IMG/VR virus record: IMGVR_UViG_2703719355_000024
Reading direction: 5' to 3' (one strand)
DNA length: 4,369 nucleotides
Source of the DNA: a virus
Taxonomy: Duplodnaviria > Heunggongvirae > Uroviricota > Caudoviricetes
How positions within the stretch are numbered: the stretch's first letter is position 1; the number at the start of each line of letters is the position of its first letter. A program made the position numbers and the translations under genes. The notes beneath the pieces are model-generated. The model made no database searches. It was not told where the DNA came from and saw nothing but the letters and a program-made list of their open reading frames with translations. Below are positions 1 through 4,369 of the stretch, in pieces.

Positions 1-354
1 TTGTCTGGCGCTTTTCCAACCGCTGGCGCTATCGCAGGGTTCTCTGGAGGAGGTGTTATTGGAGCAATAGTTGGTGGCGCTGCAGGTGGAGCAATTGATG
101 CGATAGCAAAAGGATCGATAGCGAAATTATCCGCAACCAGAAGTGGTCGTTACGCTATTGAAAAGGCTGTTCAAGAGGCAACAAAGGCAGTTAAGGTTGG
201 GGCAAGTGATGGCGCATTAGCGGCGGCAGAACGCAGATTTATGGCAAATAAGGCCGCCGTAAAAGCAATACGCGAGGCACTAGGAAACGAAGAGTTCCAG
301 CGTTTAGCAAGGGCTGGAATTGTGGCATCGCTAAGCGGAATGGCACAGGAGTAA
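1..354 (+). CDS. 3' portion of a CDS that probably starts upstream of the window (5'-partial); hypothetical protein with a Gly/Ala-rich hydrophobic segment followed by an Ala/Lys/Glu-rich helical tail; by position possibly the last virion/ejection-protein gene of a P22-like late operon
   Basis: Open frame from base 1 to TAA at 352-354. Position 1 is TTG with no upstream context, so it is most likely an internal codon. Residues 5-35 (AFPTAGAIAGFSGGGVIGAIVGGAAGGAIDAIA) form a glycine-zipper-like hydrophobic stretch. The ejection-protein assignment is inference from synteny only. Confidence 0.5.
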   Translation: MSGAFPTAGAIAGFSGGGVIGAIVGGAAGGAIDAIAKGSIAKLSATRSGRYAIEKAVQEATKAVKVGASDGALAAAERRFMANKAAVKAIREALGNEEFQRLARAGIVASLSGMAQE

Positions 355-1058: not shown

Positions 1059-1502
1059 ATGCTTACTTGTTTTGATGTCGCCGACTACTTCCTGTCGCGG
1101 TGTGACGAGGATAGCGGTGACACAATCTCTAATTTAAAATTACAAAAGCTTGTTTACTATGCTCAGGGTTTTTCATTGGCGTTGCTTGGCGAGCCTCTTT
1201 TTCAGAATAAGATGGAAGCTTGGATGCATGGCCCTGTTGTCCCTGAGCTTTATCGCCGTTATAAACAATATGGTAATGGCGCTATCCCTTCTCCAGAGTC
1301 TTTTGATGCTGAAAAATTCAGCGAAGAACAGTTAGAGCTATTAGAAGAAGTCTGGGATGTTTTTGGGCAATTTTCTGCCTGGAAACTGAGGAACATGACA
1401 CACGAAGAGTCACCATGGAGATCAAACTATATTGAGGGTGTTGGTGGTTCTGAAATTAGCTCTAAGGAGATGGCAGAGTACTTTGCAACTCGGATTAACT
1501 AA
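1059..1502 (+). CDS. Panacea-domain protein (DUF4065 / SocA-like antitoxin domain, GepA-type phage-associated protein); putative antitoxin or sensor component
   Basis: ATG at 1059 with GGAGG 7 nt upstream; the GTG at 1053 given in the ORF track sits on the SD and is less likely. The segment LKLQKLVYYAQGFSLALLGEPLFQNKMEAWMHGPVVPELYRRYKQYG matches the DUF4065/Panacea core pattern as I recall it. Stop TAA at 1500-1502. Confidence 0.75.
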   Translation: MLTCFDVADYFLSRCDEDSGDTISNLKLQKLVYYAQGFSLALLGEPLFQNKMEAWMHGPVVPELYRRYKQYGNGAIPSPESFDAEKFSEEQLELLEEVWDVFGQFSAWKLRNMTHEESPWRSNYIEGVGGSEISSKEMAEYFATRIN

Positions 1503-1926: not shown

Positions 1927-1953
1927 TAAAACCCACCGTCAGGTGGGTTTTTT
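1927..1953. terminator. bidirectional rho-independent terminator shared by the convergent Panacea operon and the repressor gene
   Basis: AAAA (1927-1930), stem ACCCACC (1931-1937), loop GTCA (1938-1941), stem GGTGGGT (1942-1948), then a T-run from 1949. The flanking A-tract and T-tract allow function in both directions. The repressor stop codon (complement of 1939-1941) lies in the loop. Confidence 0.8.
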
Positions 1954-2748
1954 GTTGTCTCTGCTATCGAGAAGGAAGTTCAATTTTTCCTCTATTTCTT
2001 TAAGCTTGAGATAAAGTAATTCTTTCTCGGTTCTGGCATTTTCAGCTATAAAATCCTCTGCTTCATCCAACGTATTTTCGCTATCTCTTATCGAGTGCAG
2101 CGGGGTTTTTAACAAATCAATTTGTGCATGAATAGCTACAGCAATGATTTCCATATCATCACTGATTTCCAACATCGGGTACGCTGGATTAAGTGGTTTT
2201 AAGTAAAAATGCCCCTGATCTCTTATTAGTTGCTTGAAGGTGGTTTCAAATCCATTGCAACACAGCACGAAGTCTCCTGGTTTGGCCTGAATATCCGGAT
2301 CAAAGCAGACAGTGTAGCCATCCGGGAAGCTAATTCCAGAAGATGATGTCATTGAATGCCCTGTAACCACTAACGCAAATGCATTATTCCCGGCACATAA
2401 CGGGGCAGGGATAAAGTCTATAGGAGTAATGTCGCTTGGAAATTTTCCTCCTTTAGGATAGGAATTTGATAGGTGCGAGAATACGGGGATCTCTCTGACT
2501 GTTACCGTTCTCTGTATTGAGCTAACATCAGGCCCCTCACCAACACCGATAGCTAACCATTCTGTTGTTGTCCCTAAAGTAGCAGCCAGATTTCGTAACA
2601 CAGCGTCCCTTGGCTTGGAATCTCCTGCTTCATAGGCTGCTATTTGCCTTCTTACGATGCCAACCTTATCAGCTAACTGACCTTGAGTCAGCCCCATGGC
2701 AGCGCGAGCGATAGATATACGCTTAGGAAATGAATCGTCAAATTTCAT
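1939..2748 (-). CDS. lambda CI / P22 C2-type repressor: N-terminal HTH (XRE/Cro-C1 type) plus C-terminal S24 (LexA-like) peptidase domain, with an additional ~55-residue charged helical C-terminal extension
   Basis: Start taken as ATG at 2748-2746 with SD AAGGA 6 nt upstream; the ORF-track start at 2805 has no SD and would overlap the candidate divergent promoter. HTH: ISIARAAMGLTQGQLADKVGIVRRQIAAYEAG. S24 domain: GHSM (Ser nucleophile) and TFKQLIRDQGHFYLKPLNPAYPMLE, very close to lambda CI [26 protein letters not shown] and P22 C2 [24 protein letters not shown] as recalled from memory. Confidence 0.85.
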   Translation of the reverse strand: MKFDDSFPKRISIARAAMGLTQGQLADKVGIVRRQIAAYEAGDSKPRDAVLRNLAATLGTTTEWLAIGVGEGPDVSSIQRTVTVREIPVFSHLSNSYPKGGKFPSDITPIDFIPAPLCAGNNAFALVVTGHSMTSSSGISFPDGYTVCFDPDIQAKPGDFVLCCNGFETTFKQLIRDQGHFYLKPLNPAYPMLEISDDMEIIAVAIHAQIDLLKTPLHSIRDSENTLDEAEDFIAENARTEKELLYLKLKEIEEKLNFLLDSRDNKKPT

Positions 2749-2770
2749 ATGTGATCCTTTAAAGTTCACA

Positions 2771-2799
2771 TTGACACATTCAAATTCATGGCAAATAAT
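2771..2799 (+). promoter_or_regulatory. candidate sigma70 promoter for the arc-like/antirepressor operon (Pant analogue)
   Basis: TTGACA at 2771-2776, 17-bp spacer, AATAAT at 2794-2799, about 50 bp upstream of the arc-like start. Flanked by repeated TGTGA/TCACA half-sites that could be operators. Confidence 0.45.
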
Positions 2800-2848
2800 T
2801 GGCATGAGTTTGTGATGATGTGTGATTCAAAAATACATGAGGTGAATA

Positions 2849-3022
2849 ATGGAACAGAAGAAAAAAGATATCAAGCCTATCTCCTACCGCCCAAGTGCTG
2901 AAGTGCGTGAGTTTTTGGAAGGTAACGCAGCTAAAAGCTACCGCTCAATTCAGGGAATGCTTGATTTCTTTATGGCAAGAGTGATGGAGATGGAGAGGAA
3001 AGGTGAAATTGTCATCCATTAA
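2849..3022 (+). CDS. arc: Arc-like ribbon-helix-helix transcriptional repressor (57 aa)
   Basis: Not in the supplied ORF track (below its length cutoff). ATG at 2849 with GAGG at 2839-2842; stop TAA at 3020-3022. Protein [57 protein letters not shown] aligns by eye with P22 Arc as recalled: a basic beta-strand (FNLRWPREV vs ISYRPSAEV), the RS motif, and RVME in helix B. Sits directly upstream of the antirepressor-like gene, as in P22 immI. Confidence 0.7.
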
Positions 3023-3093
3023 AAATGTTGAAGCCCCAACTGCTGCAACAGTCAGGGCTTCGGTATCAACAAAACTTACGAGGTATTATTGAT

Positions 3094-4023
3094 ATGTCAA
3101 GCTTAGCAAAGTCAACTGTAAATTGCACTAACAGCATCACCATTTCAGACGTCAAGATTCATATGGATTCAGAGGGGCGTTACTCGCTTAATGACCTGCA
3201 CAAGGCATCAGGTAAAGAGCGTCGTCATGAGCCTGCTGCGTGGCTGCGACTAGAACAAACCAATGAGTTAGTTCAAGAAATTCTAAATACACAGATGTGT
3301 GTATTTAAAAATGGCGATAACTTTAATTCTTCAGAATCGCAGATTAAGAAGCCAATGGACTCTAAGAAGGGTCGCTACGGAGGCACCTACGTGTGCAAGG
3401 AGCTTGTTTACTCCTACGCCATGTGGATTAGCGCAGCCTTTGCGCTGAAGGTTATCCGTGCATATGACGCAATGGTTACTACCACACAAGAGAGGAAGGC
3501 TATTGGCGGTAAAACTTCAGTAGCTGAACGCACACCGCTACGCGATGCAGTAAACATGCTGGTAGGAAAGAAAGGGCTTCGCTATGACGATGCATACAAT
3601 ATGGTTCATCAGCGTTTTGGTATTGACAGCATTGATGAACTTTCAATTGAACAAATCCCGCTGGCCGTAGAGTACATCCACAGGGTAGTGCTTGAAGGTG
3701 AGTTCATCGGCAAACAAGAGAAGAAAACCAACGAGCTTTCTGCAAAAGAAGCAAACAGCCTTGTATGGTTATGGGATTATGCCAACCGCTCACAGGCATT
3801 ATTCCGCGAATTGTATCCGGCGCTAAAACAAATTCAATCGAACTATTCCTGCAGATGCTACGACTACGGTCATGAGTTCTCGTATGTTATTGGAATGGCG
3901 AGAGACGTTTTAATAAACCACACACGAGATGTTGATATCAATGAGCCAGACGGACCAACGAATCTTTCCGCATGGATGAGACTTAAGAATAAAGAATTAC
4001 CTCCTTCAGTACATAACTACTGA
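3094..4023 (+). CDS. KilA-N domain protein, putative antirepressor (functional analogue of P22 Ant)
   Basis: ATG at 3094 with GAGG at 3080-3083. The in-frame ATG at 3025, 2 nt after the arc-like stop, has no SD but cannot be excluded. N-terminal region has KilA-N hallmarks ([53 protein letters not shown]). Followed by a strong intrinsic terminator. Position between the arc-like gene and the tailspike matches P22 ant. Confidence 0.75.
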
Positions 4024-4123: not shown

Positions 4124-4369
4124 ATGACAGACATTACAGCCAATGTTGTGGTAAGCATGCCTTCGCAACTCTTCACTATGGCGCGTTCTTTTAAAGCCGT
4201 AGCCAATGGCAAAATTTATATCGGAAAAATTGACACTGACCCGGTAAATCCTGAAAACCAGATTCAGGTTTATGTAGAGAACGAAGACGGTTCTCACGTT
4301 CCTGTTTCGCAACCAATCATCATTAACGCTGCTCGTTATGGTGAGTTTGATGACTACCCGCTGAAGTGA
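4124..4369 (+). CDS. tailspike protein N-terminal head-binding region (P22 gp9-like); only 81 codons before an in-frame stop at the window edge, so possibly truncated, remnant, or a module junction
   Basis: ATG at 4124 with GGAG at 4112-4115. The first ~70 residues ([70 protein letters not shown]) match the P22 tailspike N-terminus as I recall it. The sequence then diverges ([11 protein letters not shown]) and ends at TGA 4367-4369. Confidence 0.8.

Follow-up and report, generated by a model that had tools for sequence, protein, structure and literature searches.

Antirepressor cassettes set the timing of prophage induction, including that of heteroimmune neighbours, and immI of phage P22 is the textbook case. 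The stretch of DNA analysed here (4,369 nt; "the window") belongs to a P22-like prophage remnant in E. coli and covers its immI ("ant moron") region, in which the place of Mnt is taken by a lambda-cI/434-like HTH+S24 repressor and the place of Arc by a distant Arc-family protein. The subject here is the 100-bp segment between the two divergent genes. The full explanation that we favour, with a probability of roughly 0.6, is that an immI-type antirepressor cassette has its promoter and operators in this segment, a control region that is ordinary in kind and a variant of immI (Table 1).

Table 1. Genes, promoters and candidate sites in and around the control region (positions count from the first nucleotide of the window).
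Feature	Position	Strand	Basis
Repressor gene, 269 aa, at the place of P22 mnt	1939..2748	-	Pfam HTH_3 1.6e-11, Peptidase_S24 1.3e-17
Near-palindrome, 23 bp, outer arms ATGTGA/TCACAT	2749..2771		9/11 pairs (repeat search)
Repressor Shine-Dalgarno AAAGGA, 6 nt before AUG	2755..2760	-	read from sequence
TCACA pentamer, candidate operator half-site, 8 nt before the -35-embedded pentamer	2766..2770	-	recurrent tandem in relatives
Rightward sigma-70 promoter: -35 TTGACA 2771-2776, 17-nt spacer, -10 AATAAT 2794-2799	2771..2799	+	11/12 match
ACACA pentamer within and just past the -35, candidate operator half-site	2774..2778	-	allele link with repressor residue 33
Near-palindrome, 22 bp, TCATGGCAA-ATAA-TTGGCATGA, a second operator candidate with the -10 hexamer at its centre	2786..2807		8/9 arm pairs
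Early transcribed region, candidate operator at the P22 Omnt position	2804..2826	+	forward pentamers after -10
Arc-like Shine-Dalgarno GAGG, inside block CATGAGGTGAATAATG	2839..2842	+	sequence comparison
Leftward promoter candidate: -35 TTGATA 2874-2869, 17 nt, -10 CATTAT 2851-2846	2846..2874	-	10.7 bits, prediction
Arc-like ribbon-helix-helix gene, 57 aa, first of rightward operon	2849..3022	+	family profile search
sar antisense RNA, over the ant ribosome-binding site	3026..3092	-	Rfam RF00262, 62.3 bits vs gathering score 43, E 1.3e-11
sar terminator	3061-3030	-	sequence scan
Antirepressor gene ant	3094..4023	+	Pfam KilA-N 1.6e-22, P22_AR_C 7.5e-30

The cassette occupies a late-operon position between ejection-protein and tailspike genes: Pfam matches place the C-terminus of gp16 at 1-354 and the head-binding domain of the tailspike at 4124-4369, and in P22 the ant moron likewise lies between gene 16 and the tailspike gene. 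The flanks resemble HK620, Emek and epsilon34. Gene order is also that of P22 immI: the maintenance-repressor gene reads leftwards, the Arc-type gene reads rightwards, and beyond the latter come the sar antisense RNA and ant, which starts at 3094 according to RefSeq. The divergent gene is not that of a ribbon-helix-helix Mnt, as in P22; it encodes a cI-type protein with HTH_3 and Peptidase_S24 domains. Comparison with 125 related loci, comprising 63 distinct intergenic regions in 16 sequence groups, shows an antirepressor-type gene downstream in all 118 loci with enough sequence. The window-type intergenic region has no further copies in viral contigs, and a plasmid search returned one match only, a group c-type relative in Arsenophonus; the repressor DNA is absent from the phage records of the collection searched and present in only 7 E. 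coli genomes. A literature search found no described cI/LexA-like repressor in immI and no account of the switch in its present form, and the window type is not among the ten ant-moron types across sixteen genomes in the epsilon34 paper (PMC2629481).

The repressor comprises an N-terminal HTH_3 domain, an S24 peptidase domain and a tail of ~60 aa, and it is homologous to lambda cI over its whole length (end-to-end alignment with 3bdn, 2.5e-20) and to the 434 repressor over the HTH. Its start codon (CAT, 2746-2748) agrees with the RefSeq annotation, and 37 homologues, which conserve the N-terminus as M-x-[FI]-D-[DN]-S-F, further back a start at 2748; relatives have an AAGG/AGGT-type Shine-Dalgarno (SD) at the equivalent place. 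The Ser/Lys dyad is present, Ser132 (in GHSM) and Lys172 (in FKQL) aligning with lambda Ser149 and Lys192. The protein differs from lambda cI in its extra C-terminal tail and in its cleavage site: no Ala-Gly or Cys-Gly scissile bond is found at the homologous position (PVFSHLSNSY vs. PVFSHVQAGMF in lambda), where relatives mostly have Q-A followed by R, K, I, F, M or E. Because the canonical Ala-Gly site is missing, inactivation of the repressor by DNA damage is uncertain. An A-G pair occurs at residues 118-119, away from the homologous cleavage position.

The arc-like protein is a remote homologue of P22 Arc. A profile of its family, compared with solved structures, matches pArc (1.3e-3), AmrZ (1.7e-3), CopG, Arc (1.6e-2) and Mnt (7e-2), and 9 of 22 family members match Pfam Arc, the best of them at 2.6e-5; by itself, the protein of the window gives a weak RHH_5 match (0.054). 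The block CATGAGGTGAATAATG is common to most relatives and P22 arc. RNA structure in the arc-like leader is nothing beyond chance (z +0.1 to +0.3).

The near-consensus rightward promoter proposed in the first-pass annotation, TTGACA-N17-AATAAT, lies exactly where it was placed, is the top-scoring promoter of the window in a promoter scan, and is conserved in all 63 distinct intergenic regions: the distance between TTGAC[AT] and the repressor start is 20-23 nt in 62 of these and 25 nt in one, with a -10 placed 16-18 nt further on. Its score, its rank in the window and its conserved position in every relative put this promoter beyond chance. Transcription from it is predicted to start near 2806. 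The annotated Pant of P22 and the promoter of the window share one scaffold (CAT, 22 nt, TTGACA, N17, -10, GAGGTGAAT(A)ATG), that is, the same distance between TTGACA and the leftward start codon, the same 17-nt spacer and the same GAGGTGAAT(A)ATG block, and both have a repeat element just past the -10, at the Omnt position (P22 Omnt, +3 to +19). The intergenic region measures 100 bp in the window vs. 90 bp in P22, and the P22 operators Oarc (ATGATAGAAGCACTCTACTAT) and Omnt (AGGTCCACGGTGGACCT) have no match in the window at up to 3 mismatches. With the P22 scaffold in common, and sar and ant beyond it, the region is, as had been suggested, an immI-like divergent control region.

The near-palindrome centred on the -10 hexamer is equalled by 4% of local shuffles, and comparable -10-centred inverted repeats (p<=0.05) occur in loci L004, L007, L010, L040/46/54/63, L064 and L078/82. 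Allele comparison gave no consistent pattern by which this palindrome could be assigned to the repressor or to the arc-like protein. Both this element and the ACACA in the -35 had been overlooked in the first-pass annotation.

Four motifs had been singled out, as an inverted and a direct pair, and all four are exact in position (ATGTGA 2749-2754, TCACAT 2766-2771, TGTGAT 2811-2816 and 2821-2826). Both TGTGAT copies fall in the early transcribed region, which contains the forward pentamers TGAGT (2805), TGTGA (2811), TGTGT (2819) and TGTGA (2821) and can be read as ATGA-N2/3-TGTGAT twice. In the window alone, these repeats are within chance: when the region is dinucleotide-shuffled, 53% of the shuffles contain a direct 6-mer repeat within 20 nt, 83% contain an inverted pair of 6-mers up to 30 nt apart, and 61% contain some 5-mer 4 times. 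TGTGA is not enriched in the whole window (9 found vs. 10.3 expected), and 4 of the 9 copies sit in the 103-bp control region. It is only through related loci that some of the pentamers acquire meaning. Other candidates were rejected: a tandem-repeat array in 2804-2826 (none by TRF at score 30); a large dyad of 2766-2825 about the -10 (16/33 pairs, with 566 of 5000 shuffles as good; not significant); a CRP site, TGTGA-N6-TCACA (no match at up to 2 mismatches, the spacer of the inverted pair being 11 nt); and a promoter SOS box for host LexA, CTGT-N8-ACAG (absent from the intergenic region).

Across the family, the pentamers follow the consensus TGWGW on the forward strand and WCWCA on the reverse, with ACWCA inside the -35. 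In the 34 nt after the -10, forward TGWGW outnumbers reverse by 77 to 7 over the 63 intergenic regions and is found in 12 of 16 sequence groups vs. 2.2 expected, a value that 0 of 2000 shuffles reach. Upstream, the tandem WCWCA-TTG-ACWCA recurs with matching type in relatives: TCACA+ACACA in the window, L004, L013 and L102; ACTCA+ACTCA in L021, L039, L064 and L104; and ACTCA then ACTCT in L105. The central base of the downstream pentamers agrees with (is complementary to) that of the -35 pentamer in 14 groups, and GATGATGTGTGA of the window is similar to GATGATGGTGTGA of L004/L007.

The pentamer type also covaries with residue 33 of the repressor, which in the alignment corresponds to Gln28 of the 434 repressor, a residue that contacts bases in the 434 complex. 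ACACA is present in the -35 of 28 of 29 intergenic regions with Arg33 repressors, and ACTCA or ACTCT accompanies Pro33, Ser33, His33, Ala33, Thr33 and most Gln33 repressors; the allele switches even inside group e, where L021 combines His33 with ACTCA. This covariation comprises few independent events, and shared descent could partly explain it. From position, strand bias and the tracking of residue 33, we conclude that TCACA, ACACA and the two TGTGAT are probably repressor half-sites, candidate operator elements bracketing the promoter being the most likely reading of them. The comparison thus favours the alternative that the first-pass annotation had left open, that the TGTGA/TCACA motifs are DNA operators, and goes against its pairing of ATGTGA with TCACAT: TCACA groups with the ACACA of the -35, 8 nt away, and with the downstream forward pentamers.

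Several features count against the operator reading. The downstream site in the window is a direct repeat, not an inverted one, which is unusual for a cI-type dimer; clean palindromes do occur at that site in relatives L004-L008 and L009-L063. Because the pentamer sets lie 31-47 bp apart, a simple dimer site is insufficient as an explanation. Like the palindromic operators that overlap divergent promoters in lambda and 434, the candidate sites extend into the promoter that they would repress, at its -35, its -10 and its start; unlike lambda and 434, the window has no array of three 14-17-bp palindromes, its clearest motifs being tandem pentamers and not one dimer site.

A different assignment, which we consider unlikely, is that the two leader copies of ATGA-N2/3-TGTGAT, one helical turn apart, are an operator for the arc-like protein, which would shut the promoter off after a burst, like Arc in P22; the cI-like repressor would then be restricted to the -35 pentamers or the -10-centred palindrome. 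Ribbon-helix-helix dimers (Arc, MetJ, omega) often recognise short repeats, tandem or inverted, at a spacing of one turn or 8 bp, the protein is Arc-related, and in many groups two forward pentamers 8 nt apart are followed by a T run. However, the identical arc-like protein (WP_001602016) stands in L003 beside a different repeat, ATTGAGCAATTGAAT, and the operator-candidate sites of the two loci all differ, which argues that the sites travel with the repressor. In addition, the downstream central base tracks the repressor allele and the -35 pentamer, and in P22 the operator of Arc is found between the -35 and the -10 and not downstream of them.

Slightly less probable still is that the repeats are functionless, that only the promoter and perhaps the -10-centred palindrome matter, and that TGTGA reflects chance in T/G-rich DNA or inheritance. 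The window-only shuffle tests and the TRF result fit such a view, as do the ATGTGA at the start codon, for which most non-Arg33 groups offer no equivalent of the type expected, and the downstream site of the window, which lacks the left arm present in relatives; the strand- and position-specific enrichment of pentamers in 16 sequence groups, together with the covariation, stands against it.

Least probable is the hairpin that the first-pass annotation had put on the repressor mRNA, in which AUGUGA (2771-2766) and UCACAU (2754-2749) would hold the SD in a loop by the AUG and tune repressor translation. The stem does form in the minimum-energy fold as described (6 bp, SD in the loop, an inner 3-bp stem pairing the AGG of the SD) and would fall inside the 5' UTR if leftward transcription starts near 2839; its arms are unchanged in the 98%-identical L128 and L129 although three loop bases differ, and some inverted repeat lies between the -35 and the start codon in several other groups. 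However, the fold is weak (-6.0 kcal/mol, z -1.77, 11 of 200 shuffles as stable), no pair is altered on both sides in 15 Arg33-type relatives, 8 of the 15 break the G-C pair at the centre, hairpin cells are paired at 76.7% in these relatives vs. a shuffled mean of 78.9%, and all six stem positions pair in only 2 of 42 distinct leaders. The extra stability and compensatory changes of a regulatory hairpin are thus not found. We conclude that the hairpin is probably incidental and not a regulatory structure, and probably a by-product of the operator-candidate sites and the ribosome-binding region. Every sequence statement of the first-pass annotation is exact, and its interpretation is supported in part, the hairpin and the repeat pairing being the parts that fell.

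The layout had also been likened to the overlapping divergent promoters of P22, with different sequences. The shared scaffold and the differing sequences agree with this. A weight-matrix scan found no P22-style back-to-back leftward promoter in the window. In P22, Pmnt (TTGAGA-17-TATCAT) overlaps Pant back to back, whereas the best leftward promoter of the window faces the Pant equivalent from inside the arc-like gene. This candidate is the best minus-strand site of the window, and its -10, CATTAT, overlaps the arc-like ATG. A TTG at the fixed 17-nt spacing is present in 31 of 33 distinct arc-like 5' ends, in all 31 of which the third base of codon 8 is C (ATC, AGC or GGC). These patterns suggest that the repressor mRNA probably starts near 2839, from inside the arc-like gene and facing the rightward promoter. 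Back-to-back candidates occur in groups b, c, d and k (e.g. TTCACA-17/18-GATTAT, TTGTTA-18-TATACT). A leaderless start from TTGAAT-18-AAGGAT was rejected (6.5 bits, unconserved).

From gene identities, promoter conservation, pentamer distribution and covariation, we infer start sites, protein-site assignments and regulatory outcome as follows. The strong sigma-70 promoter, starting near 2806, would drive the arc-like gene and then, past the sar-controlled junction, ant. The divergent repressor would keep this promoter shut by binding pentamers around its core: reverse pentamers at or just upstream of the -35 (TCACA at 2766, ACACA at 2774) and two or three forward pentamers in the first 20 transcribed bases (2811, 2819/2821), with the -10-centred near-palindrome as a further candidate site. 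With these sites occupied, RNA polymerase would be blocked both at the -35 and at the start, in the way that Mnt on Omnt blocks it in P22. With repressor mRNA starting near 2839, the two promoters would be convergent, and bound repressor would also restrict its own synthesis.

LexA-like repressors gate a neighbouring regulator in P. aeruginosa (PrtR-prtN, AlpR-alpA), and host LexA controls the antirepressors of Gifsy phages and Tum of coliphage 186. The window would share the logic of these systems, that is, an HTH+S24 repressor (or LexA) restrains expression of the gene that triggers induction; unlike them, it has a repressor encoded by the phage and accompanied by an Arc-type protein and sar RNA, and its intergenic region contains no host LexA box. 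Lambda cI, in turn, controls lytic promoters, whereas the window repressor would control an antirepressor operon. Taken jointly, and tentatively, at somewhat less than even odds, the parts would make up an undescribed portable cassette: it would be common among prophages of Enterobacterales (125 loci, with 16 or more types of intergenic sequence); in it, Mnt would be replaced by an HTH+S24 repressor of lambda-cI type that carries an additional C-terminal helix; this repressor would hold the Arc-type/antirepressor operon by binding pentamers on both sides of the promoter; one recognition-helix residue would set specificity (Arg33 for TGTG, others for TGAG); and the repressor promoter would be written within the first nine arc-like codons, opposing the promoter under control.

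The practical outcome for the window is a corrected annotation, with a promoter, candidate operators and no regulatory hairpin. The variant swaps the maintenance repressor for a cI-type protein while retaining the promoter scaffold, the Arc-type gene and sar, and it occurs in many genera and two phage architectures. It provides a natural specificity series, a single recognition-helix residue vs. a single half-site base, and it raises the question of what, if anything, serves as the inactivating signal for a cI-like repressor without the usual cleavage site. If DNA damage does so, the cassette would by itself be enough to trigger antirepressor-mediated induction, and it could be moved between prophages of the podovirus and myovirus types.

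The gene content of the window is that of a P22-type "ant moron" (table). All 4369 bases match at 100% identity a segment of the chromosome of E. coli Z1323CEC0010, where the window forms a prophage remnant that adjoins dacD. Two genes of the remnant are truncated: the DNA-transfer gene (window 1-354) has no N-terminal part, and the tailspike gene (4124-4369) no C-terminal part. In this chromosome (window with L001), dacD follows the remnant, and the upstream neighbors are tail-fibre and NleG genes of another prophage. The window flanks match HK620, Emek, epsilon34, and P22, and none of the phage records in the searched collection carries the repressor, intergenic, or small-gene DNA. The first-pass annotation had likened the layout of the control region to the overlapping divergent Pant/Pmnt operators of P22 immI, though with different sequences. 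The annotated P22-pbi record reads, from the mnt start onwards, 22 nt, TTGACA, 17 nt, TATATT, ~39 nt, and GAGGTGAATATG (arc), with Oarc occupying the spacer and Omnt occupying +3 to +19. The window agrees with this in the 22-nt distance, the hexamer, the spacer length, and the ribosome-binding block (GAGGTGAATAATG). Unlike P22, it contains neither the Oarc nor the Omnt operator sequence, and no leftward promoter is detectable back to back with the rightward one, whereas P22 Pmnt (TTGAGA-17-TATCAT) overlaps Pant in this manner. The likeness thus holds for scaffold and context. We conclude that the window is, beyond mere analogy, an immI region whose Mnt has given way to another repressor.

Features of the window and their coordinates
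Feature	Position	Strand	Remarks
gp16 C-terminus	1-354		
Panacea/SocA-domain gene	1059-1502		
139-aa ORF	after Panacea gene		pair spans 1059-1926
HTH_3 + Peptidase_S24 gene (repressor)	1939-2748	leftward	269 aa
Near-palindrome TCATGGCAA-ATAA-TTGGCATGA	2786-2807		22 bp; centred on -10
Predicted repressor promoter TTGATA-17-CATTAT	2874-2846	minus	10.7 bits; best minus-strand site
arc-like gene	2849-3022	rightward	57 aa
sar antisense RNA	3026-3092		Rfam 62.3 bits vs gathering score 43
ant	3094-4023		KilA-N + P22_AR_C
Tailspike head-binding domain	4124-4369		

The Panacea (SocA-like) protein gene is separated by 4 nt from the 139-aa ORF, whose product has no Pfam match, and the two look like a PanA-type antitoxin-toxin or defence pair. 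A bidirectional terminator (1928-1951) ends this pair and is common to the convergent repressor gene. The intergenic region preceding the Panacea gene contains two copies of AAATGTGA with a distance of 43 nt (871-878 and 914-921); since the same DNA is present in Mnt-type phages, for example Emek, these repeats are probably unrelated to the cI-like repressor.

The near-consensus rightward promoter proposed in the first-pass annotation, TTGACA-17-AATAAT, scores 11/12 and is the top match in the window, and every motif that the annotation listed is present in its place. Enterobacterales have a well-defined family of such repressors, 260-300 aa in length. Genomes, viral contigs, and metagenomes yielded 125 loci, to which we added the E. 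coli alleles L002 and L003, phage JEP4, and an Arsenophonus plasmid. The 68 distinct upstream sequences included 63 with sufficient length and a recognisable -35, and all 63 exhibit a common layout. From the repressor start codon, TTGAC(A/T) is reached after 20-23 nt (25 nt in one) that include the SD in reverse complement; a -10 hexamer comes 16-18 nt further on, and after another ~40 nt there are GAGG and the beginning of a gene for 56-58 aa. Downstream of the small gene, on the same strand, lies an antirepressor-type ORF in 118 of 118 loci having at least 1.2 kb of downstream sequence. The conserved layout indicates that the rightward promoter is real. The small-protein family profile matches the solved structures of pArc, AmrZ, CopG, Arc, and Mnt (E 1e-3 to 7e-2), 9 of 22 members match Pfam Arc, and the window protein by itself gives only a weak RHH_5 match; the family is Arc-related. 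In two Rosenbergiella-type loci (L008 and L101), arc-like codon 3 is TAG (ATG GAA TAG), with the remaining gene intact. The Panacea gene, 139-aa ORF, repressor, arc-like gene, and antirepressor also occur together in L128 (4121-7079) and L129 (4121-7086), with 98% identity to the window up to the sar region; there the neighbors are a transglycosylase/tape-measure-like gene on one side and baseplate genes on the other, as in a myovirus-type prophage, and the cassette therefore moves between phage architectures.

Taken alone, the repeats in the control region are not statistically special: a 6-mer direct repeat at most 20 nt apart, an inverted 6-mer, and a 5-mer in four copies occur in 53%, 83%, and 61%, respectively, of dinucleotide shuffles of the region, and TGTGA is not enriched across the whole window. 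Their family-wide arrangement supports the first-pass suggestion that TGTGA/TCACA could be DNA operators. With all intergenic regions aligned on the -35, the positions of TGWGW and WCWCA show three regularities. The -35 has a reverse pentamer embedded in it (TTG-ACACA or TTG-ACTCA); the -10 has one to three forward pentamers after it; and several groups have a further reverse pentamer, 8 nt upstream of the first, giving TCACA-TTG-ACACA in the window and ACTCA-TTG-ACTCA in four other loci (L021, L039, L064, and L104). The 34 nt after the -10 contain 77 forward vs 7 reverse pentamers; 12 of the 16 sequence groups have a forward pentamer there vs 2.2 expected, a number reached by 0 of 2000 shuffles. 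The embedded pentamer covaries with repressor residue 33, which aligns with Gln28 of 434 repressor, a residue that contacts operator bases in the 434 complex. The pentamer is ACACA in 28 of 29 Arg33 cases; repressors with Pro, Ser, His, Ala, or Thr at this position, and most of those with Gln, go with ACTCA or ACTCT. The switch occurs even within a group, where L021 combines His33 with ACTCA and its relatives combine Arg33 with ACACA. In 14 groups the central base of the downstream pentamers is the complement of that in the embedded one (TGTG with ACACA, TGAG with ACTCA). Finally, the window and L003 encode one and the same arc-like protein yet differ in everything left of ~2826, implying that the sites travel with the repressor and not with the arc-like gene. 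Given their position, strand bias, covariation with residue 33, and travel with the repressor, TCACA at 2766, ACACA at 2774, and both TGTGAT copies are best read as candidate repressor half-sites bracketing the promoter. The ATGTGA beside the start codon is conserved in Arg33 lineages only, and most other groups have no counterpart of the expected type.

Intergenic DNA common to the window (2826-2851) and L003 (2995-3024) begins only at ~2826 (TTCAAAAATACATGAGGTGAATAATG), so any arc-like operator would lie in the TTCAAAAATACATGAGGTGAATAATG block, in the arc-like coding region, or elsewhere. CATGAG occurs twice, 33 nt apart, just past the -10 (2803-2808) and at the arc-like SD (2836-2841), and ATGAG(T) follows the -10 in most sequence groups regardless of repressor allele. 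The palindrome centred on the -10 has 8 of 9 arm pairs, is equalled by 4% of local shuffles, and has significant counterparts in about six other groups; it is a second operator candidate, for neither protein in particular. Relatives (L004-L008, L009-L063) have a clean inverted repeat after the -10 (CACACC-N5/6-GGTGTG; ACATC-N5-GATGT), of which the window retains the right half and spacer (GATGATGTGTGA vs GATGATGGTGTGA), with a second forward copy in place of the left arm (ATGAGTTTGTGAT); TRF does not score the forward pair as a tandem array.

The inverted pair ATGTGA/TCACAT, which forms the outer arms of a near-palindrome of 23 bp (2749-2771), had also been proposed as an SD-sequestering RNA hairpin that could tune repressor translation. 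The hairpin forms in silico, with a 30-nt fold of -6.0 kcal/mol (z -1.77), but 11 of 200 shuffles fold as stably, and longer repressor leaders give z ~ -1.3. An alignment of 15 Arg33-type relatives contains no compensatory pair changes, has a lower fraction of paired cells than shuffled alignments (76.7% vs a mean of 78.9%), and has the central G-C pair broken in 8 of 15; all six stem positions pair in 2 of 42 distinct family leaders. Two E. coli variants of 98% identity keep both arms, but with only four substitutions in 100 bp they are uninformative. We therefore do not regard the hairpin as a conserved regulatory structure.

For the repressor itself, we predict a leftward promoter inside the arc-like gene, facing the rightward promoter, with its -10 overlapping the arc-like start codon. 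Its TTG is present at fixed spacing in 31 of 33 distinct arc-like 5' ends, and is kept where codon 8 is Ile, Ser, or Gly (ATC, AGC, GGC); the third base is therefore always C in the 31 sequences, whatever codon 8 encodes. This C fits a -35 TTG on the opposite strand and supports a DNA-level constraint at codon 8. Codon 9 is AAG in 30 of 30 (window 2849-2880 and counterparts; 33 distinct relatives), vs 26 AAA and 21 AAG at the other positions among the first 12 codons; the promoter does not explain this invariance, the G lying just outside the -35 hexamer. The predicted site would give face-to-face promoters, a transcript overlap of ~33 bp, and a 90-nt repressor leader.

Over its full length the repressor aligns with lambda cI, and its Ser132/Lys172 dyad is retained. 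The scissile Ala111-Gly112 of lambda (PVFSHVQAGMF) aligns with Asn-Ser (PVFSHLSNSY, residues ~88-100), and most family members have Gln-Ala followed by R, K, I, F, M, or E. Because the Ala-Gly site is not conserved, self-cleavage is doubtful, or located elsewhere, and repressor loss by RecA-stimulated cleavage is uncertain. The C-terminal 60 aa (window 1939-2120), after the S24 domain, contain a conserved helix, R-L-x-x-I-E-x-x-L-E-x-x-L, absent from both lambda cI and LexA. This extra helix may be an oligomerisation element; if so, the tail would suit binding to two separated pentamer sets.

In the mechanism we propose, the repressor would occupy the pentamers at the -35 and in the early transcribed region, and perhaps also the palindrome at the -10, shutting the strong rightward promoter and blocking synthesis of the arc-like protein and Ant; as in P22, sar provides a further, antisense control of ant. 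While the rightward promoter is silent, the leftward one facing it would be free to fire, limited by repressor bound downstream of its start; upon loss of repressor, the operon would fire. In our full-text literature search, no cI/LexA-type repressor was described for immI. The epsilon34 genome paper (PMC2629481) reports great variability of the ant moron, sixteen genomes containing ten types, some of which must control ant differently. Of the initial observation, the motifs are all in place, the promoter is borne out, the operator reading is supported, and the hairpin reading is not. We conclude that the region is an ordinary promoter-operator switch and that the surrounding cassette is immI in a new variant form.
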